From positions 1-52,244 of IMG/VR virus record IMGVR_UViG_3300046115_000069: DNA of 52,244 bases; one strand, written 5' to 3'. Origin of the DNA: a virus. How positions within the stretch are numbered: position 1 is the stretch's first letter; each line of letters opens with the position of its first letter. Below, one piece after another: positions 31,095-52,244 of this stretch. Made by a program: the position numbers and the translations under genes. The notes below the pieces were generated by a model that saw nothing but the letters and a program-made list of their open reading frames with translations, was not told where the DNA came from and did not search any database.

Positions 31095-31095
31095 C

Positions 31096-33021: not shown

Positions 33022-33116
33022 TGCCTATCAATGGCACATCAGGGGCAAGACTGTGCCGTGCGAACGTTGTAGTGCTGCCAATGCACTATACGAAAAGCTA
33101 CGAAAGAGGGCGAAAC

Positions 33117-34680: not shown

Positions 34681-34681
34681 C

Positions 34682-37327: not shown

Positions 37328-37640
37328 GGGCAACGTGATGGAAGTTGGCACCGAGCGTCGGGCGCCGAACGGTTACTGGTACGTCAAGACCGAAGACCGC
37401 GGCTGGGTGCTGAAGCACTGGCTGGCCTGGGAGAAGTACAACGGTCGCAAGGTCGACAACACCAAGGAACAGATCCGCTTCGCCAACGGTAAGAAGGAAG
37501 ACTTCAGCCCTGAGAACCTCCTCTGCATCCCCAAGGGCAAGGTTAGGATCCGTCAGAAGTTGGCCTCGCTGTATGCACAACGTGATGACGTTGCTGCACA
37601 GATCGAATACTACGAGAAAGGCCTGGCGGAAGAGAGCTAG
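37320..37640 (+). CDS. Degenerate HNH_3/AP2-like homing-endonuclease-related protein
   Basis: NGYWYVK...LKHWLAWEKYNG...IRFANGKKEDFSPENLLCI follows the HNH_3 layout, but the catalytic His positions are replaced. Confidence 0.5.
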   Translation: MPRGNVMEVGTERRAPNGYWYVKTEDRGWVLKHWLAWEKYNGRKVDNTKEQIRFANGKKEDFSPENLLCIPKGKVRIRQKLASLYAQRDDVAAQIEYYEKGLAEES

Positions 37641-37800
37641 AGCTCTAGTGCTGAGCGAGAGCGTTCCTTAGCATTTGTGCATACTTAGACCTTAGTTAGA
37701 CAGAAGGAATTACGCTCAGCGCTACTTACTATAGCAGCAAGATCGCAAGTATCTAATTGCGATCTAAGCTTGTACGGACCTTCGGCCAAGGCTCCACACG
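37641..37800 (+). repeat. Structured intergenic repeat E3
   Basis: TAGTGCTGAGC and box TTGTGCATACTTAGAC (37675-37690). Hairpins GCTGAGCG/CGCTCAGC and AGATCGCAA(37740-48)/TTGCGATCT(37757-65). Ends with CTCCACACG (37792-37800). Confidence 0.8.
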
Positions 37801-38234: not shown

Positions 38235-38727
38235 TCCAACGCAGCTCGTTGGCAACCAACGTATCCTGGCGAATGACTTCGGACCGCACCACGGCTTCAC
38301 CCTCTTCGAGGCAGGCAAGATCACCTCCTGGGAGTTGGAGCTCGGCGAGGACGGACACTATCAGTTCTACAAGGCCCTGTACGAAGTGATGACGCCCAAC
38401 ACGATCTTCATCGGCGAACGCTTCCTACACCTACACGAGTTCGCCAACCGGCCGAAGATCGACCTTACGGCGCCCGAGTACATCGGCGTGGCGAAGCGAG
38501 CCATTCAGGAGCACAAGTGGACCGCCGTGTGGCAGAACGCTGCACAGGCCTGCGGCAAGACGGCCTTCTGGGGCGACAACTCCAAGCCGGGCGGGGGCAA
38601 CGAGAAGATCAAAAAGCTTGGCCTGTGGCTCCCTGGGAAGCGGCACGCCATGGACTCGCTTCGACACTTCCTATTCTGGTTCAGCTTCACCCACGGCAGC
38701 GACTACTTCCTGCGCCAGCTTCGCTAG
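38227..38727 (+). CDS. RuvC-like Holliday junction resolvase
   Basis: GTG overlapping the upstream gene. Acidic catalytic candidates ANDFGP, IGERF and HAMDSLRH, spaced as in an RNase H fold. Confidence 0.55.
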   Translation: MTDPTQLVGNQRILANDFGPHHGFTLFEAGKITSWELELGEDGHYQFYKALYEVMTPNTIFIGERFLHLHEFANRPKIDLTAPEYIGVAKRAIQEHKWTAVWQNAAQACGKTAFWGDNSKPGGGNEKIKKLGLWLPGKRHAMDSLRHFLFWFSFTHGSDYFLRQLR

Positions 38728-38739
38728 ACAGTCTACTGA

Positions 38740-38783
38740 CCCGGCATCGAGGGACCTGGTTCGGGGATACCAGGGATGCCGGG
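38740..38783. terminator. Bidirectional terminator hairpin between the convergent arms
   Basis: CCCGGCATC(38740-48)/GATGCCGGG(38775-83) with inner CCTGGT/ACCAGG. Lies between the plus-arm stop 38727 and the minus-arm stop 38792. Confidence 0.75.
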
Positions 38784-38791
38784 CCAGCAGT

Positions 38792-40168
38792 CTATTCGGA
38801 CGTCATCACAACGAGAACGCTGCTTCCCGTCCGCACAGTGAGGACCTCTGGACTAGTGGTAATCGTAGTGACAAACGGCCCAGACCGAACGACTACATCA
38901 GGCAAGATCGGGATCACACTTGGCAGGTCAAGACCGAGAAGGTAATCGACCGTCGACAGAAGTCCAAGTGTCTTTCGCTTCAGACGTCCGAACGGTAGAA
39001 CCGTATTGGTTTCCTGAAGCATTCCCAAAGGTGTGCCATCAGGGCTTGTAACGCTTAGCACGCCGTCGTTCGTTGTCAGCAGACCAAGCGTTCTGCTACG
39101 CCGACGAGTCATCTGCTGTGTGGCGCTTGTGTCTCCGATGAGGCCGAGGATCTTGCTCCTTGCACGTCCCAGGGAAAGCATTGAACTGCTGTCGCTAGGG
39201 ATTCCCAGTGTCTTCCGCTTGAGCCGATTGAGGCCTAGTGTTACGTTGGTCTCAACAAGTGTACCAAGCGTACGCCATCTTAGCCGCGTGAGGGATAGTC
39301 CCACGTCGGTTGTTGCAAGTATTCCTAGTGCGCGGCTGTGCCTCTCCTGCACACCTAGGACAGTGGCAGTTTCCTGCAACGCGCCCAAGGCGAGCGTCCT
39401 TCTCCGACCCATAGCCTGCACCGAGCTAGTGTCAGCGAGGATGCCTAGGTTGCCGATGAGAGGTCCGCCTGTCGACGCCTTAATACCGTACGCGGCGAAG
39501 TTGTTGGTGTTACTTGACGATGGCGCGCCTGTGGACATCGTTACAGAACTGGCAGGACTGGTCACGGCATTCTGAATGCCGACATACACGCGCGCGTCAG
39601 GCGCGCCAATGGAGTCAGACACAATGGCTGTCTGACTTGCGCCGGCTGTCATCGCCGCTGCAAGGTTCCAGTCCATCGCAGCAAGGAAGCCACGTGAACC
39701 GTCCGTGACGATAGAGATGGCTTGGGAGATGACTGCGCCAGCGTTGGTGCCTTCGACAACCACGTCGATCGGGTTCGAGGTGTCCACGCCTGTTGTCATG
39801 ACGCGGACGTAGATACCTGCAGGGTTGTTGGTGTTCGTACCAGTAGTCGTAACGGTCATCGCTACGCCGGTCGAGATTGCCCAGTAGCCCTTGATGTGAC
39901 CGTTCGCGAAGCCGGTGCCATCGCTCGCCTTGGATACTTCGTAGAACGCTGTCCAACCAGATACGGTGCCGCCGGTTGTTGTGTCAACGCCATCGCTGGA
40001 AGTGATCGCCGAGGAGTTGGTTAGGTTGCCGCCGGCCGTATCATGCTTGCAGTTGGCGACAAGGACACGGCCGGCTGGTGGCGTGAAGCTCGCAGTCGTG
40101 ACCGCCTTGGAAGCGCTATTGGCCTTGGCGTAGGCCGGAGTAGTAGCATCGGCGTCGCCGACGGCCAT
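38792..40168 (-). CDS. Terminal late protein: putative tail fibre/receptor-binding protein with nine 20-aa repeats
   Basis: GAGGAGG RBS. 458 aa. The N-terminal ~230 aa are Thr/Ser/Gly-rich and beta-like. Residues 241-420 are strictly periodic (LG at 241, 261, ... 401). Confidence 0.65.
   Translation of the reverse strand: MAVGDADATTPAYAKANSASKAVTTASFTPPAGRVLVANCKHDTAGGNLTNSSAITSSDGVDTTTGGTVSGWTAFYEVSKASDGTGFANGHIKGYWAISTGVAMTVTTTGTNTNNPAGIYVRVMTTGVDTSNPIDVVVEGTNAGAVISQAISIVTDGSRGFLAAMDWNLAAAMTAGASQTAIVSDSIGAPDARVYVGIQNAVTSPASSVTMSTGAPSSSNTNNFAAYGIKASTGGPLIGNLGILADTSSVQAMGRRRTLALGALQETATVLGVQERHSRALGILATTDVGLSLTRLRWRTLGTLVETNVTLGLNRLKRKTLGIPSDSSSMLSLGRARSKILGLIGDTSATQQMTRRRSRTLGLLTTNDGVLSVTSPDGTPLGMLQETNTVLPFGRLKRKTLGLLSTVDYLLGLDLPSVIPILPDVVVRSGPFVTTITTSPEVLTVRTGSSVLVVMTSE
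38909..39448 (-). repeat. Nine tandem 60-nt (20-codon) coding repeats
   Basis: Protein repeats LGxLxxTxxx-LxxxR(L/R)(K/R)(R/W)(K/R)T, for example LGTLVETNVTLGLNRLKRKT and LGMLQETNTVLPFGRLKRKT. Confidence 0.85.
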
Positions 40169-40179
40169 GGCTTACCTCC

Positions 40180-40500
40180 TCACAGTCCCGCAGTGACCTG
40201 AGCGCTCTGAAGGTCCTCGATCTTGTCGAAGCCGAACGCGACGAACTGTCCACGGCCGATGCTCGACGGCCCAGCCAGGATCGTGAACTGCGTCTCTGTG
40301 CCGTCAGGGACGCCGTTGAGCCCGACACCAAACAGGATCTTCGTGTACATGCAGTCGGCGTCGCGTTGCACGTTGGCATTCAAAATGGCCCTGGTGTTGT
40401 TGTTGAAGTTGACGGTCAGCGTGATCGCCTTGTTGGCGTAGTCAGCGAATCGGGTCTCCCACGGTGACGGCTCGACGTCGCCCCTTGCCTGACCAGCCAT
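40180..40500 (-). CDS. Hypothetical beta-rich protein (106 aa)
   Basis: TGATG coupled start. Confidence 0.55.
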   Translation of the reverse strand: MAGQARGDVEPSPWETRFADYANKAITLTVNFNNNTRAILNANVQRDADCMYTKILFGVGLNGVPDGTETQFTILAGPSSIGRGQFVAFGFDKIEDLQSAQVTAGL

Positions 40501-40982
40501 CAGGCGGACCTGTAGAAGCCTGCGGCGTTGACCACGGCCACGACATCCGAGCCGTCGGGGGTGATGGCGAAGTCGTAGCTGCCGAGGAACACGATGTTGG
40601 CATCCGTGCCACCGGTCGTGTCCGAGTCGTAGCCCAGCAACAGGTCCGTGGACACGCCACCCGCGAGCGCCACAGTGGTCCACGTGAGGTCGGGCATGTC
40701 GACGTCGTAGCGGTCGTTGGCGTCGTCCGGCGCTGGTAGTGCTGCCAGGTCAGCGTCGGTGATGGTCTTCCGGTTCCACCCGTTGGTGGTCCGTTCGGTG
40801 ATGCCACCGCCCAAGGCCAGTACAGCCGTGATCGTGTCGGCGTCACGAAGCTGTGCGTCGGTCACCGTGCCGCGTGAGATCGGGATGATGATGAAGGCCG
40901 AGTTCGCAGGGTCGTTGTTCTCAACCCTGTTGTAGAGCTCGACCACTCGGCCCTTGCCGATGTTGGCCGTCACGTCTGCCAT
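40500..40982 (-). CDS. Hypothetical structural-looking protein (160 aa)
   Basis: TAATG coupled start. MADVTANIGKGRVVELYNRV... No family recognised. Confidence 0.55.
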   Translation of the reverse strand: MADVTANIGKGRVVELYNRVENNDPANSAFIIIPISRGTVTDAQLRDADTITAVLALGGGITERTTNGWNRKTITDADLAALPAPDDANDRYDVDMPDLTWTTVALAGGVSTDLLLGYDSDTTGGTDANIVFLGSYDFAITPDGSDVVAVVNAAGFYRSA

Positions 40983-41329
40983 TACTGAGTCACCATTTTC
41001 TGTACTACGACCCCGCCCTGGGCAAGGTACTCTGGACTGTTCGGTGTGCCGTCGTCGATCCAAACGTCCCAGACGCCGGACAGGATCGTCAGTGCAGCTG
41101 TCTGCGCCTTGCTGAGGAAGATGTCAACGTAGCCGGACGCAGCTACGATGGTAGGGACGACCGTCAAGACTTCGACTAGGTCGTCGACATCCTGGCGGAT
41201 CTGCATCTTCGCCGTGAAGCCAATGAGGTTGCGGACAGTCCCGTCGCTGTTAGTAACAGCGATGCGCTTGATGAACGGTGCGCCCTTGTGGATGGTGATG
41301 TCAAGGCGTGCAGGTGTGTTAGCTGCCAT
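40982..41329 (-). CDS. Hypothetical Ig-like/beta-sandwich-looking protein (115 aa)
   Basis: ATG 41329 overlaps the holin-like gene by 11 nt. Confidence 0.55.
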   Translation of the reverse strand: MAANTPARLDITIHKGAPFIKRIAVTNSDGTVRNLIGFTAKMQIRQDVDDLVEVLTVVPTIVAASGYVDIFLSKAQTAALTILSGVWDVWIDDGTPNSPEYLAQGGVVVQKMVTQ

Positions 41330-41591
41330 CGGAAGGCTTCAGTCCGTAGTCGCGCGGACGATCGTAGACCATGGACGCAGATCCGATGGGGCCAGCGCCG
41401 GATGCGTTGACGATCATGGACTTGATGACGCTGAAGAGTGCTGCGATGGCCGCTGCCAGCAAAACGCCCTTCCAGTCCGCCGAGATGATGTCCAGGCCGT
41501 CGACACCTGCGATGCCTACGAGGGCTGCCAGGAAGGCCCAGAAGAGGCGTTCGCTGGCTCCCTTCCAAAACGCTACTGTCCAGATATTCAC
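41319..41591 (-). CDS. r1t-type holin-like membrane protein (90 aa)
   Basis: GTG 41591 lies 6 nt after AGAGG. AFWKGASERLFWAFLAALVG...WKGVLLAAAIAALFSVIKSMI resembles the phage_r1t_holin family. Confidence 0.6.
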   Translation of the reverse strand: MNIWTVAFWKGASERLFWAFLAALVGIAGVDGLDIISADWKGVLLAAAIAALFSVIKSMIVNASGAGPIGSASMVYDRPRDYGLKPSDGS

Positions 41592-41592
41592 T

Positions 41593-41937
41593 TCATACCT
41601 CTGTATTGCTTCGACGCTGATTGCGAATGAGTAGGACAAGCCATCGACCCAACACCACCATCGTGATGCCGAAGATGGCCAAGCGAATGAGACCCCGCTC
41701 AGGATAGCCCTCAAAGGCTGATGCGGAGACACCGTGGACAACTGATTGAAAGTTGGCCATGGCCACGTAGGTTAGGACCAAAGCGTAGGAACCAATAGTT
41801 GCCATCAGCGCCTTGCCCTCGTCGTACAGCTGCCACTTGGACCTTGAGGCGTACAGGATGATGTGTGTCCAGGCGATAGCGGCGTCTGCAACAACGACGA
41901 CAGATCCGATCCAGAACACCCATTCATTAGCGTTCAT
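41593..41937 (-). CDS. Multi-pass membrane protein (114 aa), holin/antiholin candidate
   Basis: Three or four hydrophobic segments. Basic C-terminus NQRRSNTEV. Confidence 0.6.
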   Translation of the reverse strand: MNANEWVFWIGSVVVVADAAIAWTHIILYASRSKWQLYDEGKALMATIGSYALVLTYVAMANFQSVVHGVSASAFEGYPERGLIRLAIFGITMVVLGRWLVLLIRNQRRSNTEV

Positions 41938-42133
41938 CGTGCCTACCTTCCATCGCTAGGCGAATGCGGGCGCCTAGGTGGTTTTGGTCACGCTCAGTCC
42001 GGAGTGAATGAGTAAGTTTCCGGCCCTGAACGGCTTGCACATCTACTACCTTCTTCGCGGCCCTCACCTCGGCAAGTGCCTCACTATGCTTCGCGCGACC
42101 TGACGACCACCTCATTAGATTCCACCAGTTCAT
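41927..42133 (-). CDS. Small basic soluble protein (68 aa)
   Basis: ATGA overlap with the upstream gene. Confidence 0.5.
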   Translation of the reverse strand: MNWWNLMRWSSGRAKHSEALAEVRAAKKVVDVQAVQGRKLTHSLRTERDQNHLGARIRLAMEGRHDER

Positions 42134-42381
42134 TGCTGGACACCTCCGCGCGGGAGTGCCTTTAGGATGGCATCCGCAGTCCTAGCGTACTCGAGAAGTT
42201 CCTTGTTAGTCTCAACGACCGTCATAGCTACGGCCTGCCATTCTCTGGCCTCTTGTGCCTTTTCGCGGTAGAAGGAACGAGGAACAAGCCGTCCGGTTAG
42301 GATCATGATGACTGTCAATGCCAAGAGCGATCCAGGTCCCCACTTGGCAAGGATAGCTTCTAGTGCCAACCCTTCGAACAT
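42130..42381 (-). CDS. Single-pass membrane protein with a coiled-coil tail (83 aa); holin or lysis accessory candidate
   Basis: GACGGGGA RBS. TM segment GPGSLLALTVIMILTG. Confidence 0.6.
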   Translation of the reverse strand: MFEGLALEAILAKWGPGSLLALTVIMILTGRLVPRSFYREKAQEAREWQAVAMTVVETNKELLEYARTADAILKALPRGGVQQ

Positions 42382-42406
42382 GTTCCCCGTCTCTCTACTG
42401 CTATGG

Positions 42407-43222
42407 TTACGGAATCGCCGTGGTCGCTTCCGCCTGAATCTTGAGGGCGGCGACGCAACCGTCCTTCGCGTACTTCTTGGCGAGCGTTGGGTCGAAGGCC
42501 TTCTCGGCGATGGCGGTCGCGAGCGTGTCGATGAAGGTAGCGTCTGCGATCAGAGCCGCTGCGAGCTCGGTGGCGTTGACCGCAACCTCGACTGGCTTCT
42601 TGACCTCAGTGAGGAGCTCCTTGAGGATGTTTGGGAACGTGACGGGTGCGCCGTTCTGCACGCTCTTGTTGCCGACGATCGGATCGTGTCCCTGAAGGGC
42701 GTGGTACAGAGCGTTGTCGGCGTTGAGCGCCGCCTGTTCGGGTGCGGTGGCCACGATGCTTCCTCCTGCTTTGAACGAGGTGATTGAAGTCCACTCCGAG
42801 CCATCCTCATCGAAACCAGGATCGCCACTGAAGTGGCCATGCATGTCGTGCGGGTCCTTGCCTGTGTAGCGTTCCTCTTTCCAACCGTCGGACTTCTTCC
42901 AGACCCTACGGTCGTAGATGATGTAGATGAGACGCTTCAAGTCTCCAGGAGTCCGAAGCATCCGCTGAACAACCTGCTCGAGCGTTACGCCCCTGGGGTT
43001 GTTCAGCCGCTTGTCCTTGTCGATGGCACGGACCTCTTGCTTGGAATCTGCATCCGACCTCTCTGCAGACACACCTGGTGTGTCGTCAGGGTTGTGACCT
43101 GACGTTCCCGACGCGTGTGCTAGGTCGCCGATCCACCCGTCCTGGGCCGTCTCGCTCTCAGGGAACGTTGACTTGAAGTCTTTCCACATTCGGTCCATGC
43201 TTGTCGACCGTTGCGGTGCCAC
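42407..43222 (-). CDS. Putative endolysin (LAS/M15-like zinc peptidase motifs)
   Basis: GGAAGGGAGG 6 nt before GTG 43222 (the ORF is open to 43255). HNPDD (H-x3-D) and HDMHGH (HxH). Lies between the tail genes and the membrane proteins. Confidence 0.55.
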   Translation of the reverse strand: MAPQRSTSMDRMWKDFKSTFPESETAQDGWIGDLAHASGTSGHNPDDTPGVSAERSDADSKQEVRAIDKDKRLNNPRGVTLEQVVQRMLRTPGDLKRLIYIIYDRRVWKKSDGWKEERYTGKDPHDMHGHFSGDPGFDEDGSEWTSITSFKAGGSIVATAPEQAALNADNALYHALQGHDPIVGNKSVQNGAPVTFPNILKELLTEVKKPVEVAVNATELAAALIADATFIDTLATAIAEKAFDPTLAKKYAKDGCVAALKIQAEATTAIP

Positions 43223-43394
43223 TACTTGCCTCCCTTCCACGCAACTCATCTTCACGAATGCCGACTACCACTTCGCCAAACAGCGTCACACGGAGTTGGA
43301 ATCCGCAACCGTCACAGTCGAACACGTGACCGATTCCAACCCCCAATTCTGTGAGGTCGGTCTCTTCGGCACAGTTCATGCATGGGATGATCAT
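43158..43394 (-). CDS. Small Zn-ribbon protein (78 aa)
   Basis: TGATG coupled start. CMNC...CDGC. Its 3' end overlaps the endolysin start by about 65 nt. Confidence 0.45.
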   Translation of the reverse strand: MIIPCMNCAEETDLTELGVGIGHVFDCDGCGFQLRVTLFGEVVVGIREDELRGREASSGTATVDKHGPNVERLQVNVP

Positions 43395-44194
43395 CAGAAT
43401 CCGTTCACTGACAGTAGCTGTAGACGAGCTGTTCCGGCACCGCTGACTCGACGCATCTCTAGATCGATCTTGAACAGGAAGCCAGCGTACGGGGGACCGC
43501 CGGCGAAGTCATTCTCATGTTCGTAGAAGAGCTGCGAGTATACAAAGGCACCAGAGCCATGAGCATTGGGCGCCGTGGTGGGATTGCTAAAGGCCGTATC
43601 ACGTGCACGAACCTCGGACGTCGTACCAACATCATTCTGGACCAGATAGCTAAGCTCCAGGAATGGGTGAAAGCCCTGGCCGTAGACGGTCCACAACGAA
43701 GCGAACGAGCCTGACGTGGTGCTCGCTGAAGGTGTGGCATGTACACTAGACAAGGCGAAGGGGTAGTCGAAGGACGGACTGCTGAGGCCCCAGTTCACGC
43801 CCAACGAAACGACAGAGGATCCGTTGTGGTCGATGACGTCAACCACCCCGCCCTCGTCAACGCCCCCAGGCTCACTTGCCCCTGCAACGAACATGGGTGA
43901 GCCGTCGCCACCTGTGTTGGGGTTGTTTGCCTGGATGCCCCAAACATCTCCGTCAATGTTTCCGATGCGGGCAACAATGCCATCGTCCAACTGTCGACGC
44001 ACGATGAGAGTTGCACCGGACTTGAGTGTCAGCTCGCCACTGTCGATTGACGTATTGCCCTTGCCGCCGCCCGACTCCAAAGCCTTTAGGCGTCGGTCGA
44101 ACTGGGCAATGATGTCGCCCATGGTCGCCTCGCCAGTGCCATACCTCGTGCTGCGCCCAGAGCCGAGACCTGGACCAAGACCTGCACTAGTCAT
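43394..44194 (-). CDS. Minor tail protein (266 aa)
   Basis: ATGACTAG overlap with the upstream gene. Gly/Ser-rich. Called by position. Confidence 0.6.
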   Translation of the reverse strand: MTSAGLGPGLGSGRSTRYGTGEATMGDIIAQFDRRLKALESGGGKGNTSIDSGELTLKSGATLIVRRQLDDGIVARIGNIDGDVWGIQANNPNTGGDGSPMFVAGASEPGGVDEGGVVDVIDHNGSSVVSLGVNWGLSSPSFDYPFALSSVHATPSASTTSGSFASLWTVYGQGFHPFLELSYLVQNDVGTTSEVRARDTAFSNPTTAPNAHGSGAFVYSQLFYEHENDFAGGPPYAGFLFKIDLEMRRVSGAGTARLQLLSVNGF

Positions 44195-45266
44195 TCAACT
44201 CATCCCCCTCAAAGACAAGTTGGACCTCGTCAGAACTGTCATCGGATTGTGGCGTGTAGCTCCACGCGACCAACCTGGCAGGTGTCTGAAAGCCTTCAGG
44301 ATGTCTGGCATCCAAAATAGCCACCGTACAACTATCACCCAAGCCGTACGATCCGAAGACAGGTGCTGTGTTCCCTTTAACCTGGATCTTAATGCTGGTG
44401 AATGGAGGGCGTCGACGCGGCCCAATTTGATTGGCGAAGCTCTGCACCAGATAGGCGTTGTCGATATCCTTCCGGGGGTACGACACGTCGAACCTGTTGA
44501 ACCCCGATGCCAACAGGTCCGTTGCTACGTATGTGCCTACGATGATGTCCGAGCCGTTGCCGTCGCCGAGTACGTACATGTGCGTCCCGGCGTTAGTCAT
44601 GCCGTCGGTCTTCCAATAGTTGAAGATGTTTCCGGGGTACTCGAAGGACATCCCGGAAGGATCGGCTGTTCCCAAGTTGGGACTACCAATTCGAAGGTCG
44701 CGCCTGTAGTTGTATCCGGCCTTCGTTGCCGTAATCTTCCAATCGAAGCCCTCGACACCATCTGCCAATGCCTGCATATTGGTCAAATAGGTCTTGTAGT
44801 CTGTAGTCAGTGTCGACAAGTCCACTGACGTCAGAGCCATGAAGGCGGACGGAACGTTGATGCCGAGATTGCAGTAGGTCTGTGCCTGAAGCGTGTTCCA
44901 AAGGTCACGCATGATGTTTCGTGGGTCGGCTGAGATGTTGTAGTCACCCATGAACACCTTGTCAGCGTATGCCTCGGACTCACGGCACGTTAGCTGCAAG
45001 TCCTTGGCAAGGCTGTCGTAGGTCCTAGACCATACGATGCCGTCCCAAAGAACAACATCGTCACGTTCCGCAGTCATGAAGCACTCGCCTGGTACAGTTG
45101 CGTTGACTACGTCGTGGTTGTCAACACCTGTGGCATCCAGTCGGACTGTGGCACGAAACGTTCCCCAATCGTTCAGCATGCTGGACATCGACACGCCCTC
45201 AAGAGCGAGCTCAGCAAGGACTGTTCGGTCGGAGAGCCTGCCAAAGACGTACCGGATGCCAGACAT
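44187..45266 (-). CDS. Minor tail protein (359 aa), Tal-position candidate
   Basis: TAATG coupled start at 45266. Confidence 0.6.
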   Translation of the reverse strand: MSGIRYVFGRLSDRTVLAELALEGVSMSSMLNDWGTFRATVRLDATGVDNHDVVNATVPGECFMTAERDDVVLWDGIVWSRTYDSLAKDLQLTCRESEAYADKVFMGDYNISADPRNIMRDLWNTLQAQTYCNLGINVPSAFMALTSVDLSTLTTDYKTYLTNMQALADGVEGFDWKITATKAGYNYRRDLRIGSPNLGTADPSGMSFEYPGNIFNYWKTDGMTNAGTHMYVLGDGNGSDIIVGTYVATDLLASGFNRFDVSYPRKDIDNAYLVQSFANQIGPRRRPPFTSIKIQVKGNTAPVFGSYGLGDSCTVAILDARHPEGFQTPARLVAWSYTPQSDDSSDEVQLVFEGDELND

Positions 45267-46429
45267 TAGTCCCAGCCCTCCAGGTAGAAGGAGCACCCGG
45301 CCTGGAAGTTGCCAGCGGTCTGCAGAAGCGAGAAGCTGGTGTAACCAGAACCAGACGAGCCCAGGTAGGCCAGCACCTGAGTGAAGGCCTGACTACCACC
45401 AGAGGTGTTGAAGACGTAGCCGGATTGTGCGATTGCGGTCAGGTAGGTCGCATGCGGCGCATCCCACCCGAACAGGTCCATGTTCCCACCAGCCCAGTCA
45501 CCAGCGCCGGCACCTGACGGGAAGTTGCCAACGGCCCAAGAGGTCTGGCCAATGCCTGCCGTCGCTGATACGGTGGTAGCGAAGGCATTCAAGGTCTGGT
45601 GCCTGTAGTTAGCACCGGCGTCGGCGTTGATCCTCGCCAGTAGAGCTCCCGACGATGAAGCGTCGCCGCGAACTGTCCAACCGATGCGAAGCCGCTTCAA
45701 GGTAGCTGGGATGTTCGAGAACGTGATCGTTGAAGCAGGCGCCACCAACGTTTGATCCTGCTTGTACGGGGCAATCAGGAACCACGTGGTACTAACCAGG
45801 CGGCGGTGGAGCGTCGTGTCGAGCTCGTAGATCAGCTGCCCTTGCGGTACGGTGTTAGTGCCAGGCCGAGTGGTGCTCGTGCAGTTGATTACGCCGCCGA
45901 GTGCCGCTGCCCAGACGCGTTGGTCCGTGATGTTGGCATTGACGATGGTCGTAGTGGCCGCGGCCACAGCAATGCGAGCCAAAATCAAGGAGCTGTTCGG
46001 TGCAGAAGGAACAGCAGGCGAAGCCGAAGCCACACCCGTTACGTTGATGATGCGCCAGTCGTTAATCGCGCCACTGTAAGCCTGGTCACGAACCTGAGCC
46101 ACGATCAAGTCAATACGCGGCTGTGCTGGATCTGACGCTGTCAGTGTAACGTTGACTGTGGCATCGTTGACGGCGGTGTACACGCCCTGCTTGGAGCCCT
46201 CAACGCCAGGGATGAAGGCCACGCCTGATGCCACGTTGACAGACATGTTTGGGGAGCCATTCTGCGTGACCGCAAGCTCCCCGCCATGCGTGTTGTGAAT
46301 GCCTCCACGACTCTGCAGAGGCGAGCCGGAATCTGAACCCGCAAGCAGTGCGTTCGCAACACCACGATCCACCTCAGCCGTGTGGTTGGTCAAGTTTTGC
46401 ATGAATGCGGGTGGCTGTACTGCTGTCAT
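45266..46429 (-). CDS. Minor tail protein (387 aa)
   Basis: Follows Dit. PRIDLIVAQVRD and Thr/Ala/Ser-rich beta-like sequence, as remembered from actinophage minor tail proteins. Confidence 0.6.
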   Translation of the reverse strand: MTAVQPPAFMQNLTNHTAEVDRGVANALLAGSDSGSPLQSRGGIHNTHGGELAVTQNGSPNMSVNVASGVAFIPGVEGSKQGVYTAVNDATVNVTLTASDPAQPRIDLIVAQVRDQAYSGAINDWRIINVTGVASASPAVPSAPNSSLILARIAVAAATTTIVNANITDQRVWAAALGGVINCTSTTRPGTNTVPQGQLIYELDTTLHRRLVSTTWFLIAPYKQDQTLVAPASTITFSNIPATLKRLRIGWTVRGDASSSGALLARINADAGANYRHQTLNAFATTVSATAGIGQTSWAVGNFPSGAGAGDWAGGNMDLFGWDAPHATYLTAIAQSGYVFNTSGGSQAFTQVLAYLGSSGSGYTSFSLLQTAGNFQAGCSFYLEGWD

Positions 46430-46432
46430 GTC

Positions 46433-47290
46433 TCACCTCCAGGCGTATCGGTATTGAATGATCAGCTTGCTCGTAGGATCAGAACTCTCAGCACGGTACC
46501 GGATGAACGTCGATCCTGGATCGAGGTAGAACCATACCGGAGCCAAGAGTGTGTTGCGACGATTCGTAGCGTCGTTCAACTTCACCGTCTTGTACTGTGG
46601 CCGGATCACCAACGTTTCTCCAGCACCCAAGGTGATGTTGAACTTCATCAACTGGCCCGTGGTGTCGTTCAGAATCTGGGGATTCGTGACCGGTCCGTAG
46701 ATGGTAAAGGTTGGCGGCGTCGAACGGTTACCGCCATTGGTAACGAAGGCGCCATCCGAGACAGTACTGACACCACCGTACCCGAAGTTGTAGCTCTTGT
46801 TATAGCCACGACCTGTGAAGACTGTAGCACCTAGGTTGATCTGAGTCGACACCAAGTTGTTGCTGTAAATGCGTGGGTCCTCGGCGAAGCCCCGGAACTG
46901 AATGTCTGCCTGACCAAGACGACGAAGACTTGTCCAGTCGTATCGAACACCCAAAGGCTTGATGAAGATCAAACGCTCGCCGGCATCAGGTGTTGTGAAG
47001 TACAACGGAACTAGAACACTACTAGGCGACCAATTTGCCTTAAGCGTATCTACATACGTTTCGAACAGACCTGTCAGTGCGTACAGCATGCCCGTCAGGG
47101 CAATGTCGCGTCCCTTCTCAAACTCGGCATCCATGTAGCCACCATCGTCGCCCTCATGGTCACGCTGCGTCTCCCGGAATGGTGCCGAGTCAAGTCCACG
47201 AACCTCGTTCAGGTCAATAAAGGGAAAGCTTGTCGAGTCACTATTGATGACTGCACCCGTATCGCCAAGGCGAAAGCTAAGTTCATCCAT
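46433..47290 (-). CDS. Distal tail protein (Dit-like)
   Basis: TGATG coupling to the tape measure stop (GTG 47293 is an alternative). The N-terminus LSFRLGDTGAVINSDSTSFPFIDLNEVRGLD is typical of siphovirus tail component proteins. Confidence 0.7.
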   Translation of the reverse strand: MDELSFRLGDTGAVINSDSTSFPFIDLNEVRGLDSAPFRETQRDHEGDDGGYMDAEFEKGRDIALTGMLYALTGLFETYVDTLKANWSPSSVLVPLYFTTPDAGERLIFIKPLGVRYDWTSLRRLGQADIQFRGFAEDPRIYSNNLVSTQINLGATVFTGRGYNKSYNFGYGGVSTVSDGAFVTNGGNRSTPPTFTIYGPVTNPQILNDTTGQLMKFNITLGAGETLVIRPQYKTVKLNDATNRRNTLLAPVWFYLDPGSTFIRYRAESSDPTSKLIIQYRYAWR

Positions 47291-50013
47291 CACATCACCG
47301 TCGTAACTTCCCAGCCCAGCTGCGTGGCAGCGCGCTGTGGGCTAACTTCCTGAGTGGTAATGTTCTGTGTAATGTTGTAGTACTTGTTAACCACGGGCGC
47401 AGGTGCTGGCTGTAGATCCGGACGACGGAACGAAGGCTGGCCATCTGAGTCCAAGTCAGTACGTAGATCCAACGTACTGTTGATTCCATTCAGCTGATTC
47501 AACAGTGCTGGGAACTGCGACTCGATACCAGTCATGAGGCCTGTCATCACGGCCTTACCTGCAGGGACGAGGATCTTACGGTCGTAGTCAAGCGGACCCT
47601 TGTGGTCGGCAATGTACTTGCCAACGCCAGACAACACTGTACCAAGACCCGGAATGGCTTGTTCGACGCCACGAATCAGGCCTTGAATTACAGCTCGTCC
47701 AGCACTAACCAACACACTACCAAGGTCGCCTACAGCATTCTGGATCGCACCCGGAAGTGAACGGATCAGAGACAACACGAGGGAAATGTGTTCACTAACA
47801 GACTTGCCAAGAGACTTGAAGATGTCGATTAGACGGTTAACAGCCGCCTTCGCCATGTTGAAGGCGTCGACACCCCAACCCCAAGCCTGTACCATCAGCT
47901 GGACGACACTGATGACAAAGCTGACAACGGCAATCAGCAAACCGAGTACACCAGCGCCAGCCAACAATGTAATCACAGCAATGGCTACCAAGCTGGCCTT
48001 GGCAAGACTAAACAACACACTAATAAACGGCATGAGTGTCGCCTTATTTTCATTCCACTTATCTGTAAGACCCTTAATGGCTGGGAGTAGAACACCCGTG
48101 ATGAGGTCGCCAATCCAGCTAAGCACTGGTGCTAGCCAAGACTGCAACGTCTGTCCCACAGTTTGCAGAGTGGAGATTAGGTTGCCGCCCATCTCCTCAC
48201 GGAAGGAGATGAATGCAGGCAGCACCCACTCCTCGATGTAGCCCCACAGTTCTTGCAACGCAGGAAGGATCGTAGCCCTAAATGCCTCGGAGAACGAGGC
48301 AGCAAAGCTAGAGGCGATACCCCAAAGGACCTTGATGTCCTCCCACACCATCTGGAGCATCATTCGGAAGTTGGCGCTGTGCTTCCAAACGTAAATGAAG
48401 GCTGCAGCCAAAGCGGCCAAACCTGCAACGAGTGCTAGAGCGCCACCCAACACTACTAGCAGTACAGACCCTGCTGCGACGAAGGCTGCAATGACACCCG
48501 CCAAGGCGCCAACGAGAATCAGGATGATGCCACCAACAATGGCAATAGCCGTGCTAAATATCAGGAAGGCTGCTACAGCCTTCTGCATCGCCGGCGACAA
48601 GCCATTGAACTTGTCGAGCAACTTCATGACCCAGTTGATGATGGAGATGAAGGTGGGAATGAGTGCCCGACCCAAACTCTCCTGCAACAGCTTCCACTTG
48701 TTACGAAGCATCTCTGTCTTGGCAGCAGCTGTATCAGCCATGAGGCCATATGCAGCATCCAAGCTACCTGCAGAGTTCTTAACCTCGCCAAGAATACTAT
48801 CGAAGGTCTCCAAGGTGCCAGGAACGAGAAGCATCGTCTGAAGGAATCGACGTGCCTCAATCGTGCTTCCAGCACCCTTGAAAATCTCCAAGATTGCCCC
48901 GACACGATCCTTCTCCGGCAACTTGTTAATTACCGTACGAAGGTCACGCAAGACGTCGTTGAAGGGTCGCATGTGTCCAGTAGCATCAAGGGCACTGATA
49001 CCAAGGCCCTTCAGGTTCTTGATAACCTTCGGGTTGGAGATTGCATCGAAGGCACGAGCCACCGAGGTAGTAGCTCGTGCAGCCGACATACCCATACGGG
49101 TCGCGGTAGCAAGTGCAGCCATCATAACTTCGATGGACTGCCCTGCTCGCGCCGCCGATGGGGAGACAAGACCGATCTTCTCGGCCCACTCCTGGTATGT
49201 GCCAACACCTTCCTGGACCAGCTGGAACTGCATGTCTAGGACTTTGTTAACGTCCTCAAGGGGCCTACCGAAGGCATTGAGGACACCAACGGTTGCTCGC
49301 GAGGCCTCCTGAATATCAACCTGGCCGGCAACCGCAGCCTTCGCAAACGCCCGCAGAAGCAACTCCGCCTGACGTGTATTAGCTTCTGTCGAGGAGAAGA
49401 TGTCGAACAGTGCCGGCTGAATGCTCTCGAACGGCAATGCAATGTCATTAGCGACTCGTCGGCCAATGTCACCAAGTTCCTGAAGGTTACCCTTGAAGCC
49501 GTCAATCTGTGTCGCCGTGTGCTTCACTTGACGCTCGTACTCAACTGCAACGTCAATGAAGCTCTTCATGGCATAGAGAGTCACAGCGCCAAAGGCTACG
49601 AGACCAACACCTGCCGTTGCAAGGGCTTGCCCACCCTGCTCAACGACACTAATCATGTGTCGGTGTCGTTGTGAGCTTGCGTCAGCTGCTCGAGCAACAG
49701 CATCGTGTGCTCGAGCAGCATCTTCCGCACGTCGTGCCATGTTCGCGTAACCCAATGCAGCACGACGATGTCCTGCAATCTGCTCTTCCGTAGCACCATT
49801 CAACGCTGCTAGGGTTGCACGCTCGCGGGCCATGGTCGACAAGCGCCGAAGCCTATGAGCGTTCTCCCTTTGAATTCCAGCGGCAGCAGCCGCTGAGGCA
49901 CGATTCGCTGCAGCCCCCGTAGACAGAAGTTCCCGACTGATACCACGCAACGTACGTGAAGCCTCATCTCGTGCACGAAGCACGAGATACAACTCACGCG
50001 TTGACATGGGCAT
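47290..50013 (-). CDS. Tape measure protein
   Basis: 907 aa, Ala-rich and helical with a long hydrophobic central block. AGGAGG RBS. Immediately follows the G/G-T chaperones. Confidence 0.88.
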   Translation of the reverse strand: MPMSTRELYLVLRARDEASRTLRGISRELLSTGAAANRASAAAAAGIQRENAHRLRRLSTMARERATLAALNGATEEQIAGHRRAALGYANMARRAEDAARAHDAVARAADASSQRHRHMISVVEQGGQALATAGVGLVAFGAVTLYAMKSFIDVAVEYERQVKHTATQIDGFKGNLQELGDIGRRVANDIALPFESIQPALFDIFSSTEANTRQAELLLRAFAKAAVAGQVDIQEASRATVGVLNAFGRPLEDVNKVLDMQFQLVQEGVGTYQEWAEKIGLVSPSAARAGQSIEVMMAALATATRMGMSAARATTSVARAFDAISNPKVIKNLKGLGISALDATGHMRPFNDVLRDLRTVINKLPEKDRVGAILEIFKGAGSTIEARRFLQTMLLVPGTLETFDSILGEVKNSAGSLDAAYGLMADTAAAKTEMLRNKWKLLQESLGRALIPTFISIINWVMKLLDKFNGLSPAMQKAVAAFLIFSTAIAIVGGIILILVGALAGVIAAFVAAGSVLLVVLGGALALVAGLAALAAAFIYVWKHSANFRMMLQMVWEDIKVLWGIASSFAASFSEAFRATILPALQELWGYIEEWVLPAFISFREEMGGNLISTLQTVGQTLQSWLAPVLSWIGDLITGVLLPAIKGLTDKWNENKATLMPFISVLFSLAKASLVAIAVITLLAGAGVLGLLIAVVSFVISVVQLMVQAWGWGVDAFNMAKAAVNRLIDIFKSLGKSVSEHISLVLSLIRSLPGAIQNAVGDLGSVLVSAGRAVIQGLIRGVEQAIPGLGTVLSGVGKYIADHKGPLDYDRKILVPAGKAVMTGLMTGIESQFPALLNQLNGINSTLDLRTDLDSDGQPSFRRPDLQPAPAPVVNKYYNITQNITTQEVSPQRAATQLGWEVTTVM

Positions 50014-50018
50014 CGGGG

Positions 50019-50638
50019 CTACCTCCTCTTCGAGTCGCGCTCTTGTCGTTCTTGCTGGGCACCATACGTGACCATGAACAGGTGCATCAGCAATGCATCT
50101 TGGTCAAGTACGCCACCAGCCCTCGGCAACGCGTGTGTAATGCTACACAAGTTTGCCAGGTTTACCACATCTGCTGCGACACCCTCAATGGGTCTACTAG
50201 TTAAGATCCCAGCCCTGATGTCGAAGCAGATTTTCCCAGCGCACTCGACTCGTCGTCCAGTTCGTCCTCGAAGTTGTTCAGCTCGCCGATCCGTGTCGAG
50301 ATCTCCTCGGCGATACGTGCGTCGACCTTTCCGATGTCCTGCGGGTTGCTGAAGTCCAACTTCCGCGTACCCTCTTCAGGCTTCTTCGGGTTGATGTACT
50401 CTTCGAGGTTGTGGTCCTCGATCAGGTTGGTCCACTCCCAAACAGCAATCTCTCGCTGCATGAGGTCGATCTCGCCTGCGATGTCCTTCTGCTTCTTCGA
50501 CCCGGTGAAGCGGAGCTTGTCGGACAGGGCGCCACGGGTCAACTTCTGTCCGTGGTTCATCCGACGGACGACCACATAACCTTCCGCTAGAGTCTTCAGG
50601 TCGAAGCGCTTGCTACCACCAGTGACTGCGATTGGCAT
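50019..50638 (-). CDS. Tail assembly chaperone G-T fusion made by a -1 frameshift at 50231-50237
   Basis: The -1 frame is open for 70 codons from the slippery site to TAG 50019-50021, exactly filling the otherwise non-coding gap before the tape measure gene. Confidence 0.75.
50201..50638 (-). CDS. Tail assembly chaperone (G-like, 145 aa)
   Basis: GAGGGAG RBS. Lies between the major tail and tape measure genes. Acidic C-terminus. Confidence 0.75.
   Translation of the reverse strand: MPIAVTGGSKRFDLKTLAEGYVVVRRMNHGQKLTRGALSDKLRFTGSKKQKDIAGEIDLMQREIAVWEWTNLIEDHNLEEYINPKKPEEGTRKLDFSNPQDIGKVDARIAEEISTRIGELNNFEDELDDESSALGKSASTSGLGS
50231..50237 (-). other. Slippery heptamer G_GGA_AAA for a programmed -1 ribosomal frameshift
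   Basis: The minus strand reads CTG GGA AAA TCT in the zero frame, which fits the X_XXY_YYZ pattern. Confidence 0.75.
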
Positions 50639-50689
50639 TGTCAGCTCCCTCAGCTGTATTCATTAATGACGACGAGTGTGCCCGCTTGG

Positions 50690-50850
50690 CTCCCCAATAC
50701 TCCACACGGGCTTGGAATGCTTCTTACGTTCACAGTTAGACCTTAGTTAGATACTTGCGATCTTGCGCTGGACTTACGCTGTAGCTGTTGCGATTCCGCG
50801 CGATCTAACTAAGGTCTAACTATGCACAAACGCAGGATTCCAAGAGCTCT
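50690..50850 (-). repeat. Structured intergenic repeat E4
   Basis: Box TTGTGCATAGTTAGAC (rc of 50814-50829). 19-bp perfect inverted repeat 50734-50752 / 50803-50821. GGAATCGCAA and GCAAGATCGCAA blocks. CCGTGTGGAG (rc of 50700-50709). Confidence 0.85.
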
Positions 50851-50868
50851 TAAGAGATGAGCTCTTGG
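50840..50868 (-). terminator. Hairpin CCAAGAGCTC-(9 nt)-GAGCTCTTGG straddling the major tail gene stop codon
   Basis: 10-bp perfect inverted repeat. The loop contains the TAA stop. Could attenuate read-through from the abundant tail tube gene. Confidence 0.5.
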
Positions 50869-52112
50869 GTCTTTACCGTCAACGTGTACTCCGCACCGGT
50901 GGCGTTGACGATGTTCTGGTAGGCCACAGCCGCCCGCACCAGATCGCCCTGCGATCTGAGACCTACCTCGTAGGTGTCCTTGATGGTGACTGGAAGGTCG
51001 ATCACGATGCTATTGTTGGAGCCCTTGGTTGCCGTGAGCTTGATCGCCTGCGACGTGTACGCCTTGAAGGCGTCGTAGTCAGTACGTGCAGTGAAGTCGC
51101 GCTCCATCGTTGTGGTGCAGTTGCGCTCACCGTACTTTACGAAGTCGGCACCGCGCCCGGTGTTCTTCAGGCGGTACTGCGGCTCTGCGTTGTCCTCGAC
51201 CTGAAACTCGAACGTGTCAGCGTCCGTGACAGGTGTTGCTGCGGGTACCTCGATGATGTACTGGCCAGCACCGTACGGCGTGGTGGTGGGCCACGTCGGA
51301 ACCGGAACAGCCTGTGAGGCCTCGTCGCGGCCAATGATGGAGCAGCTGTACATCAGGGCACCATCATTCACAGAGATCGTGAACGAGGACACAACACAAC
51401 CCACGTAGCCGAACACTACGCCGGCAACGCGCTCGATGGTGATCGAGGCGGTGCGTGCAGGAACGGCCAACGCTGTAGGCGTTCCCGTGTAGGTGTAGTT
51501 CGGGGTGGTACCGGTACGTACCACGTCCATGCGCGAGATGCACATGAAGTACGGCAGGACGTCCTCGGTCAGCTCGAACTCCAGGTCGCCCTCGACGTGG
51601 GCATTGCCAGGGATTGCACTCTGGACGCCAACGCTACGACGGATGGGCCGCCGCCACGTGGTGTCCTGTTGGTACATCAGGGCTTCACTGGTCACAGGGA
51701 TGAACTTGGTTGGTGCAACGTAGATGCCACCATTGCTGGCGGTGTTCATCGTTGGGTAGGCACCTGAAGGTGCACCAACGGCCGTATCGTTGTACAGCAA
51801 CACCAGACCGAGAGTAGCCAACAGGAGCTCTGAGCCTGACGCACCTGCAGCCGCCGTACGGTAAACCTTGTAGCCGGTGGCGCCAGTGACGGCACCCCAG
51901 GTCAAGGCACCTGTCAGGTTGCCGGCAGACGTGGTAATGGTGATCTCGTTGGAGACACCCGTCTCACCGCTTGCGTTGATGGCCGTAACGTAGTACTTGT
52001 ACGTCCCGGCAGTAAGAGCGCCACCAGCAGTAGCACTACCAGCCAGTACCGGCGGGATGAGGACTTCGAAGGCAAACCCCACCTGGCCGCCTCCGCCAAT
52101 TCCCAAGGGCAT
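50850..52112 (-). CDS. Major tail (tube) protein with an N-terminal FN3-like domain
   Basis: 420 aa, GAGGAGG RBS, directly upstream of the chaperones and tape measure. YKYYVTAINASGETGVS...GATGYKVYRT is an FN3 signature. Confidence 0.75.
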   Translation of the reverse strand: MPLGIGGGGQVGFAFEVLIPPVLAGSATAGGALTAGTYKYYVTAINASGETGVSNEITITTSAGNLTGALTWGAVTGATGYKVYRTAAAGASGSELLLATLGLVLLYNDTAVGAPSGAYPTMNTASNGGIYVAPTKFIPVTSEALMYQQDTTWRRPIRRSVGVQSAIPGNAHVEGDLEFELTEDVLPYFMCISRMDVVRTGTTPNYTYTGTPTALAVPARTASITIERVAGVVFGYVGCVVSSFTISVNDGALMYSCSIIGRDEASQAVPVPTWPTTTPYGAGQYIIEVPAATPVTDADTFEFQVEDNAEPQYRLKNTGRGADFVKYGERNCTTTMERDFTARTDYDAFKAYTSQAIKLTATKGSNNSIVIDLPVTIKDTYEVGLRSQGDLVRAAVAYQNIVNATGAEYTLTVKTQELIS

Positions 52113-52114: not shown

Positions 52115-52244
52115 CTAGACCTCCTCGTCCGGGTAGCTCATGAGGCGGACCGTGAGCTCGACGTCATCCGGCAGGTTGTCCTGTAGGAGCTGCACGCCTT
52201 TGATCCGCTGGAAGCTCTTGGCAATAGTGCCTTCGAGCTGCTGG
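52115..52244 (-). CDS. 3' part of the junction-spanning small late gene (same gene as 1-207)
   Basis: TAG stop at 52115-52117. The sequence 52118-52244 duplicates 1-127. Confidence 0.6.
   Translation of the reverse strand, partial: QQLEGTIAKSFQRIKGVQLLQDNLPDDVELTVRLMSYPDEEV
52118..52244. repeat. Terminal overlap copy B (identical to 1-127)
   Basis: Exact 127-nt identity with the window start. Confidence 0.97.

Follow-up and report, generated by a model that had tools for sequence, protein, structure and literature searches.

How does an uncultured phage mark the borders between its blocks of genes, and are the marks read as DNA or as RNA? This question is raised by a 52,244-nucleotide stretch of viral DNA (IMG/VR record IMGVR_UViG_3300046115_000069, analyzed over its whole length and called the window below), in which the gap between the tail tube gene and the gene that follows it holds a long inverted repeat at positions 50690-50868. 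An earlier note, written from the sequence alone, described this repeat as one of four related elements and named two things that it might be, an RNase III processing hairpin of the kind found in T7-like phages or an array of protein-binding sites. We call the four copies E1 to E4 in the order of their coordinates, the tail gap being the site of E4, and find that they are very probably protein-binding arrays acting at the level of DNA. The full regulatory model, in which a nucleoprotein complex at each boundary controls transcription, is one that we hold with about even confidence.

The four elements are built to one plan, in which two 17-bp modules (TTAGAY-N5-TTAGAY, the sites 11 bp apart) face each other over a core of 49-50 bp, the whole cassette measuring 130-180 bp and occurring four times in the genome. 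Searched with at most one mismatch, the pattern TTAGAY-N5-TTAGA has exactly 8 matches in the 52 kb against 0.56 expected, a number reached by none of 100 shuffled sequences, and each element holds two of these matches in opposite orientations, their starts 68, 68, 67 and 68 bp apart. With 8 of 8 module matches falling in the four elements, E4 and its paralogues E1-E3 form the family that had been proposed. Eight of the nine TTAGAC hexamers of the genome also lie inside the elements, and avoidance of the hexamer elsewhere looks strong when measured against dinucleotide shuffles but only modest against Markov expectations. The likeness extends beyond the modules, since TTGTGCATA stands exact at all four elements, a GGAAT(CC) block also accompanies each copy, a GAGCTC palindrome is found 30-60 nt upstream of each, and an alignment of the four copies with one IMG/VR orthologue has a mean column identity of 71%. 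The spacers within the arms are of three types, CCTTAG (type A; the left arm of E3 and both arms of E4), CAGCGM (type B; the left arm of E1 and both arms of E2) and TCGCAA (type C; the right arms of E1 and E3), and their shuffling among the copies shows that sequence has been exchanged between them. All four elements have the same polarity relative to their flanking genes, as the earlier note had claimed, but this part of the claim is true of the present genome and not of the lineage, for the polarity is reversed in some relatives. Two extra exact copies of TTGTGCATA were seen, one on the far side of E1 (9646-9654), which makes E1 more symmetric, and the other within the HNH gene, 95 nt upstream of E3 (37572-37580).

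Relatives were found by searches with the tail protein, the polymerase and the early protein gp16984, together with scans for DNA patterns, which gave dozens of syntenic contigs whose proteins are ~27-88% identical by tblastn to those of this genome. TAGAC arrays are present in them at four matching syntenic positions, with contig L160 carrying an orthologue of E1 and contig L161 one of E2; for L144 and L147-L149 the synteny is based on called genes. Absence or lack of conservation of the copies in relatives, which had been named as evidence against a functional element, is thus not what we see, and the conserved synteny supports the placement of the elements at transcription-unit boundaries. 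By these comparisons the elements are ancient, though not universal. The array at the E1 position is absent in L101, and L143 has no array in 17 kb of sequence. The sister clade L045-L053 has no TAGAC arrays in its tail gap and shows a different arrangement ~30-200 nt after the tail gene, consisting of a CCGTGTGGAG hairpin (GGCCGTGTGG...CCACACGGCC), two TTTAACAT(G/T)GT repeats and, read by eye, TTGCTT-18-TATAAT; the arrangement suggests a terminator/promoter junction, and the promoter scan does not call the TTGCTT-18-TATAAT pair in these contigs.

Scans seeded with the polymerase or helicase protein alone gave few relatives, a scan for modules in direct orientation returned mostly unrelated 11-bp tandem repeats (the confirmed syntenic relatives being L131 and L132 only), and a pattern scan of metagenomes gave 2 true near relatives among 16 matches. 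The 16-mer TTGTGCATASTTAGAC has 29 single matches in IMG/VR, none of them with the extended element, and these are accordingly taken as chance matches. One relative (L042/L043/L072) has an extra small open reading frame (ORF) between the tail gene and the TAGAC array, and four related contigs (L109, L111, L114 and L116) carry TAGACcgcaatTAGAC, a 48-bp gap and then GTCTA-N6-GTCTA, their CGCAAT spacer being the spacer of arm type C in the window.

The comparison with relatives separates what is fixed in the design from what is free. Conserved is the pentamer TAGAC, usually with T or GT before it, and so is its phasing: in 407 kb from 26 syntenic sources, namely the window and 25 loci, 48 pairs of neighboring TAGAY sites on one strand are 11 bp apart, while most other distances have only 0-5 pairs each. 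The core is also constrained in length. An IMG/VR scan that allowed cores of 35-55 bp returned 23 loci whose cores measure only 39-41 or 48-51 bp, although these matches are not independent, many being orthologues, and widening the core window to 30-60 bp on the collected sequences gained no other length. Elements found in other ways fit the same two classes (50 bp in L089, L144, L147 and L160; 51 bp in L161; 39-40 bp in L063, L064 and L061). Since the classes differ by one helical turn and both are present at the E4 position, the core shifts in jumps of one turn. Free to vary, on the other hand, are the spacers between sites and the greater part of the core sequence. Each side may have two to four sites (often as xAGAC-N7-TAGAC-N4-TAGAC-N6-TAGAC), and the modules, which usually face inward, face outward in L088 and L149 and in the same direction in L090, L131 and L132. 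Variation in site number and module orientation fits modular protein sites, and the combination of invariant short sites, helical phasing and rotational quantization argues for an oligomeric protein that recognizes double-stranded DNA and not for a folded RNA. The suggestion that the repeats are an array of protein-binding sites is therefore supported by the relatives, in which the 11-bp phasing persists, the core is quantized by helical turn, and pentamers are kept while spacers diverge.

The competing account is that the elements work in RNA, as a long hairpin that is cleaved by host RNase III or another factor, or that stabilizes or terminates the upstream messenger RNA, in the manner of T7-like phages. 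Folded as RNA, E4 and E2 indeed form a long arm-to-arm hairpin of 20-40 bp (z = -6.2 and -6.6), but E3 and E1 form a local hairpin in one arm (z = -2.4 and -3.3), and when five aligned copies are folded together by RNAalifold the covariation term is +0.24, so that covariation on balance lends no support. A covariance model was built along the lines that the earlier note had proposed, with a sequence-only twin, and both recover the same elements in relatives; structure adds 10-15 bits for L147, L099 and L108, which have complementary arms and so count for a hairpin, and little or nothing for L104 and L103, whose arms are not complementary. Its scores on the two strands are nearly equal (29.6/28.2 for L108, 21.3/19.1 for L104 and 16.3/16.0 for L103), which is the behavior of a DNA palindrome and unlike that of a strand-specific RNA. 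The 6-nt arm spacers within an element agree, on average, at 4.25 of 6 positions, where permuted pairs agree at 2.5 (P < 1e-4), with a bimodal distribution among 16 elements: eight agree at 5 or 6 positions, so that their arms are perfectly or nearly perfectly complementary, as a hairpin would have it, and the spacers of the other eight, agreeing at 3 or fewer, are unrelated. Both arms change together between E4 and its L030 orthologue (CTTAGT/CTTAGT to AGCAGA/AGCAGA) and between E2 and L161 (AGCGCT/AGCGAT to TTAATT/TTAAGT), which again favors RNA, but from E1 to L160 one arm only has changed (AGCGAT to TACACG).

Template switching in quasi-palindromes is an established mutational mechanism, and we infer that the joint changes reflect concerted correction between inverted arms, to which exchange between copies would add. 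The hairpin potential of E4 and E2 is then best read as a by-product of inverted modules, perfected by arm-to-arm correction. The common polarity of the four copies in this genome would suit an RNA signal, as against which the modules of some relatives are direct or outward, a loop quantized by 10 bp has no RNA rationale, and the pentamer is invariant and does not covary. No match to the elements was found in Rfam at the gathering score or at an expectation value (E-value) of 1 or less, nor any in the literature searched, in agreement with the earlier statement that no described element has this sequence; over the window, Rfam finds only tRNAs and one unrelated weak match. With long hairpins missing from E1 and E3, no net covariation and arms that are often not complementary, an RNase III hairpin of the T7-like kind fails as a property of the family, and we consider an RNA element of any of these kinds improbable.

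We infer that gp16984, an early winged-helix protein of 140 amino acids with a C-terminal coiled coil, is the best candidate binder of the TTAGAY sites. Its AlphaFold (AF2) model is of high confidence, with a mean predicted local distance difference test (pLDDT) score of 88, and its Foldseek neighbors in the PDB, which bind operators or iterons, are MarR and Rrf2 regulators, RepA_N initiators and TubR winged helices, with high probabilities and marginal E-values (9e-4 for the best, 0.004-0.02 for RepA_N and TubR, and 0.023 for TubR). The gene lies 1.2 kb from E2, and homologues lie 0.3-5 kb upstream of the array at the E2 position in L104, L110, L144, L147, L148 and L149. Among the early-block proteins, only gp10198, gp15281 and gp16984 have tblastn matches in the clade of L063. 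Metagenomes contain 24 homologues of gp16984, not counting its own database entry, and these share an invariant core (LSTPYYTxVMxHLKxMGCVEQLRRGGG..S.W) and a heptad-rich C-terminal helix; the contigs of the two closest end before the E2 position. Searching genome contigs with the gp16984 family identified no prophage and no host.

The core between the modules has a syntax of its own. Read in the sense of the genes, the long class runs TAGAC, 4-5 nt, a GGAAT-like block, 15-19 nt, a TA-hexamer, ~6 nt and (C)AAGATC, the hexamer being A/T-rich, beginning with TA (TAAGTC, TACTAT, TAGTAA, TAAGTA, TAGGTA, TATAAG and others) and standing 17-18 nt before the downstream module. The short class has TAGACN at 16-18 nt from a central TA-hexamer on both sides, a spacing like that of -35 and -10 boxes. 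By its layout the core may be a weak promoter between operators, the upstream module then taking the place of the -35 box or lying a helical turn beyond it. An intrinsic terminator with a G+C-rich stem and a U-tract was found on the sense strand at none of the elements, and the hairpin at the E4 stop codon is not called by the terminator scan.

We propose that an early phage protein, for which gp16984 would be the best candidate, oligomerizes on the phased sites along one face of the helix and on both sides of the core, forming a nucleoprotein complex that may resemble those of ParR on R1 parC or TubR on tubC. Such a complex would control transcription at the boundary, either by preventing read-through or through a weak promoter situated within the core or shortly after it, and would help to time the replication, head and tail blocks. 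Several observations weigh against this proposal or parts of it. Genome-wide, scans with the sigma-70 consensus, like the terminator scans, stay at the level of noise or shuffles, within the elements the sigma-70 scan calls antisense sites only (in E2 and E3), and the core hexamers mostly lack the terminal T of the actinobacterial -10. A hexamer that comes closer to a -10 box is found ~75 nt downstream of E1 (TAGAAT here, TATAAT in L160), 22-24 nt before the first start codon of the head operon (9577-9605 in the window, 2370-2405 in L160), so that the promoter may sit outside the core. In the clade of L063 and in L149 the cassettes at the E1 and E2 positions have the opposite polarity, which is awkward for a directional promoter. 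The likeness of spacers within elements and the concerted arm changes of E4/L030 and E2/L161 leave room for selection on a hairpin, and the excess of TTAGAC in the elements over the genome is only modest under higher-order Markov expectations. Finally, L143, which has no TAGAC array, does have a gp16984 homologue; the recognition helix of this homologue is divergent, a single data point that would be compatible with co-variation of protein and site. Because the evidence for a promoter is thin, we commit ourselves only to a regulatory nucleoprotein complex that acts on transcription at the boundary.

Phased sites in split blocks, and a candidate protein with RepA_N and TubR among its structural neighbors, could also mean that the arrays are iterons at which an initiator is loaded for replication, or dispersed centromere-like sites such as have reportedly been described for phage N15, bound by a RepA_N- or TubR-like protein. 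The TTGTGCATA box beside the arrays, which we take to resemble the actinobacterial DnaA box (TTGTCCACA), and the apparent independence of function from orientation in relatives would sit well with this idea. It is nevertheless unlikely, for no ParA, ParM or TubZ, integrase or repressor was found among the ~50 ORFs screened, the Foldseek E-values for RepA_N and TubR are marginal, several origins would be unusual in a 52-kb genome, and the four copies stand exactly at gene-block boundaries, three of them adjoining a motif associated with start codons. A position that follows the final gene of a block and its stop-codon hairpin would suit a pure roadblock, at which a bound protein halts RNA polymerase as L5 stoperators do, or insulates the blocks, without any promoter in or near the core; a symmetric design would stop polymerase from either side, and polarity is indeed not conserved in relatives. 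This account makes the conserved core blocks and the TA-hexamer at its fixed distance superfluous, leaves E1, in a divergent gap, with nothing upstream to halt, and must reconcile just four sites of ~130 bp with the many short asymmetric stoperators (~13 bp), so that we give it little probability. Highly improbable is a selfish palindromic repeat like a miniature inverted-repeat transposable element (MITE), spread within the genome and without function for the phage: the arms are inverted and terminal, the arm types A, B and C are shuffled and all copies are intergenic, yet the four positions are shared down to roughly 27-40% protein identity, conservation is limited to short sites and geometry and does not extend to the ends, a transposase was not found, and inspection of E4 by eye shows no target duplication. 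One further reading is that a lytic lineage reuses the iteron architecture of centromeres, as wrapped complexes of a winged-helix/coiled-coil protein similar to those on parC or tubC, for genome-wide timing or insulation, with four fixed boundaries dividing its chromosome into early, replication, head and tail domains, or that the arrays are true dispersed centromere or origin sites of an unrecognized maintenance system; we regard it as rather unlikely. The reading we prefer remains that of DNA-level arrays bound by a phage protein.

The positions of the elements, their parts and their counterparts are collected in Table 1.

Table 1. Elements of the TAGAC family in the window, associated features, and relatives with arrays at the corresponding positions
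Feature	Position	Strand	Details
E1	9646-9791	-	Modules 9743-9759 (-) and 9676-9692 (+); core 9693-9742; divergent gap upstream of head/packaging operon
E1 boxes			TTGTGCATA 9761-9769 (-) and 9646-9654 (+); GAGCTC 9786-9791
E2	18607-18757	+	Modules 18644-18660 (+) and 18711-18727 (-); between early and replication blocks
E2 boxes			GAGCTC twice, 18607-18618; GGAATCC; TTGTGCATA 18634-18642; CTCCACACG 18749-18757
E3	37640-37800	+	Modules 37685-37701 (+) and 37751-37767 (-); directly after HNH endonuclease gene
E3 boxes			GAGCTC 37640-37645; TTGTGCATA 37675-37683; CTCCACACG 37792-37800
E4 hairpin CCAAGAGCUC/GAGCUCUUGG	50840-50868	-	10 bp; stop codon 50850-50852 inside; no U-tract
E4 GGAATCC block and TTTGTGCATA box	50821-50841	-	GGAAT 50837-50841; box 50821-50829
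E4 upstream module TTAGACCTTAGTTAGAT	50803-50819	-	Two sites, 11 bp apart
E4 core, 50 bp	50753-50802	-	GGAAT 50793-50797; TA-hexamer TAAGTC 50771-50776; AAGATCGCAA 50755-50764
E4 downstream module	50736-50752	+	TTAGACCTTAGTTAGAT on + strand, inverted relative to 50803-50819
CCGTGTGGAG copy of CTCCACACG motif in weak stem	50680-50711	-	Copy 50700-50708 (+); stem GCCCGU/GCGGGC
Candidate binder gp16984	16984-17406	+	Early 140-aa winged-helix protein, C-terminal coiled coil
CTCCACACG copies	7020, 9243, 12697, 12970, 18749, 21740, 23917, 31867, 37792, 50700
Position of E1 in relatives			Divergent gap upstream of head operon: L102, L103, L147, L160
Position of E2 in relatives			After gp16984 homologue, before SNF2: L104, L110, L144, L147, L148, L149, L161
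Position of E3 in relatives			HNH to next gene: L088, L089, L090, L099, L106, L131, L132
Position of E4 in relatives			Tail tube to chaperone: L030, L061, L063, L064, L072, L085, L094, L096, L101, L105, L108

E4 itself is as it had been described, all the features named earlier being in the sequence at their coordinates. The gap of 211 nt is that between the tail-tube ORF (50850-52112, minus strand) and the next ORF (50201-50638, minus strand); the latter has no family match, and the name chaperone, the label of the earlier reader, is kept for its position only. The 10-bp hairpin that holds the stop codon of the tube gene has a folding energy of -17.4 kcal/mol (z = -4.1), and in L030 a hairpin of different sequence is found at the same place. 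Next to it, the GGAATCC block and the TTTGTGCATA box are conserved in E1-E4, L030, L160 and L161. The perfect 19-nt inverted repeat proves to be the center of longer arms of 42 nt that are 83% complementary (50711-50752 and 50803-50844), and the blocks of the core recur at equal spacing in E1, E3, L030, L144, L160 and others. The remaining blocks assigned to E4 are all present, but the CCGTGTGGAG block is part of a separate motif, CTCCACACG, which has 10 copies in the genome where 1.0 would be expected. It is kept as CC(C/G)TGTGG in relatives, and the stem in which it lies folds no better than shuffles (z = +0.9).

This CTCCACACG motif has, by eye, all its copies in gaps that precede gene starts, with the extended consensus CTCCACACGGnnATTGGAT. 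On the coding strand, and with distances again taken by eye, it stands as CTCCACACG ~10-25 nt or as CCGTGTGGAG ~26-53 nt before the start codon, the copy at E4 having the opposite orientation to those at E2 and E3. Relatives retain CCACA(C/G)GG at the corresponding places, and we regard the motif as similar in kind to the start-associated sequences (SAS) of mycobacteriophages.

The genome in which the elements lie is complete, circularly assembled and ~52.1 kb long. Bases 1-127 are an exact duplicate of 52118-52244, a terminal repeat that is most simply an overlap of the circular assembly, so that the window is the whole genome. Head and packaging genes occupy 1-9576 on the minus strand, early and replication genes 10198-38727 on the plus strand, and tail and lysis genes 38792-52112 on the minus strand. 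The large terminase was assigned through tblastn matches to phage terminases, and the other annotated products include a holin, the major tail protein, a Dit tail protein and a Mu-like protease. Also annotated are an SNF2 helicase, an AAA_24 ATPase, a DUF669 protein, a RepB-like primase, an exonuclease and HNH endonucleases, and further products are QueC, a radical-SAM enzyme, FolE and PolA fused to a domain of the uracil-DNA-glycosylase superfamily. Pfam and PHROG scans of ~50 ORFs found no RNA polymerase, sigma factor, integrase, repressor or partition NTPase, and most early proteins have neither a Pfam nor a PHROG annotation. No cultured phage has a nucleotide match to the tube/chaperone gap and its flanks (50400-51100), and the best protein matches are all to actinobacteriophages (terminases ~33% identical, and a 51% identical segment over 22% of the tail protein).

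Other features of the genome were noted in passing. The region 29570-34680 contains a gene set for 7-deazaguanine, a queuosine precursor (QueC, a radical-SAM QueE-like enzyme, GTP cyclohydrolase I and a MazG-like pyrophosphatase), with an unannotated ORF of 299 amino acids, and the set suggests that the phage DNA is modified. At 34649-37078 lies a family A DNA polymerase whose N-terminal domain is that of the uracil-DNA-glycosylase superfamily. Two tRNA genes lie in the early region, along with a third, weak candidate whose 25.8 bits fall short of the gathering score (16236-16308, 16395-16466 and 16600-16669). Gaps in the early region contain two repeat pairs (9830-9874/9888-9932 and 12612-12656/15149-15193), of which one holds the palindrome TTGTATTACTACAA and the other terminates in ATCTGCRYTATACTAAAAA, and these may be promoters or operators of early genes. 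Where the plus and minus blocks converge (38725-38800), a G+C-rich hairpin (CCCGGCATC...GATGCCGGG) between TAGACaGTCTA and GTCTA may be a bidirectional terminator with stray sites. As regards other identities for the four elements, small ORFs in their gaps were rejected on account of a low G+C content at third codon positions, attP arm sites for the lack of an integrase and the presence of four copies, and pac or cos sites for the four copies and their distance from the terminase gene.

If correct, the proposal of a boundary nucleoprotein complex would show how an uncultured lineage of soil phages organizes its temporal gene program, and would provide a compact, orthogonal pair of operator and regulator. 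Its design rules are explicit (a 5-6-bp site, an 11-bp period, core steps of a helical turn, four fixed positions and few candidate binders), and direct tests are therefore possible.

In architecture the closest known systems are R1 parC with ParR and tubC with TubR. R1 parC consists of two blocks of 11-bp iterons (5 + 5 direct repeats) around a 39-bp promoter region, on which ParR oligomerizes and bends the DNA into a U-shaped complex (PMC2241845). The elements described here likewise have blocks of repeats phased by 11 bp that flank a short core (39 bp in parC; 39-41 or 48-51 bp here). They differ in having only 2-4 sites on each side, as a rule in inverted orientation, and in being dispersed as four copies, where parC is a single locus upstream of parMR, and ParR is a ribbon-helix-helix protein whereas the candidate here is a winged helix; no family of the parM or parR type was found in the Pfam and PHROG scans of ~50 ORFs. 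The tubC sites of type III partition, for example in prophage c-st, are TTGAC iterons with 6-bp spacing in split blocks over a predicted promoter (PMC6009700). Pentamer iterons in split blocks, here TAGAC, are again spaced by 6 bp, and TubR is among the structural neighbors of the gp16984 winged helix. On the side of difference, there are four copies, none immediately upstream of the candidate gene, the match to TubR is weak (E-value 0.023), and no TubZ (tubulin/FtsZ-like protein) was found among the ~50 ORFs scanned. With no motor protein and four dispersed copies, the cassette is a member of neither group.

Sites of activators of the OmpR/PhoB family and of SARP activators are short direct repeats with an 11-bp period that overlap or abut the -35 of a weak promoter. 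The short class, with TAGACN 16-18 bp from a central hexamer, is similar, but has a second, inverted module downstream of the hexamer, and the phage was not found to encode a response-regulator or SARP domain. With the RNase III sites of T7-like phages the elements share repetition as intergenic inverted repeats within an operon, and E4 and E2 could form long double-stranded RNA; unlike those sites they share no single fold and show neither net covariation nor strand asymmetry, and what is conserved in them belongs to the DNA. L5-type stoperators belong to temperate phages that have a repressor, and are numerous, short (~13 bp), asymmetric and all oriented alike. The present genome has only four elements, each composite and ~130 bp long, neither a repressor nor an integrase was detected in it, and the polarity varies in relatives. 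From MITEs the cassette differs in that its positions are conserved across distant relatives, and no target duplication was seen at E4, where this was looked for by eye only.

Conserved intergenic repeats are known from many actinobacteriophage clusters, almost none with a demonstrated function; among them are the SAS of Cluster K mycobacteriophages, a start-associated motif of which a subset, the extended SAS (ESAS), is preceded by imperfect inverted repeats of ~17 bp, and similar cluster-specific repeats occur in Microbacterium phages, the function of SAS and ESAS still being unverified in 2025 (PMC3203893, PMC7302621, PMC12699233). The elements described here differ from ESAS in sequence, spacing and internal phasing. 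SAS, a 13-bp sequence (GGGATAGGAGCCC) at the position of the ribosome-binding site and in one orientation, has no sequence similarity to CTCCACACG, which stands 17-53 nt upstream and in both orientations; the arms of ESAS are 4-13 bp apart as against 49-50 bp here, and the 17-bp arms of our elements are two phased sites each, an internal 11-bp phasing for which there is no description in ESAS. What is shared is a lineage-specific motif near start codons, CTCCACACG in our case, some copies of which have two imperfect inverted repeats of ~17 bp before them, in an arrangement that is conserved at homologous genes across relatives. In its genomic behavior the cassette is closest to the cluster-specific repeats of actinobacteriophages, SAS and ESAS included, and it is a previously undescribed variant of phage cis-element among the cluster-specific intergenic repeats of actinophage-like phages.

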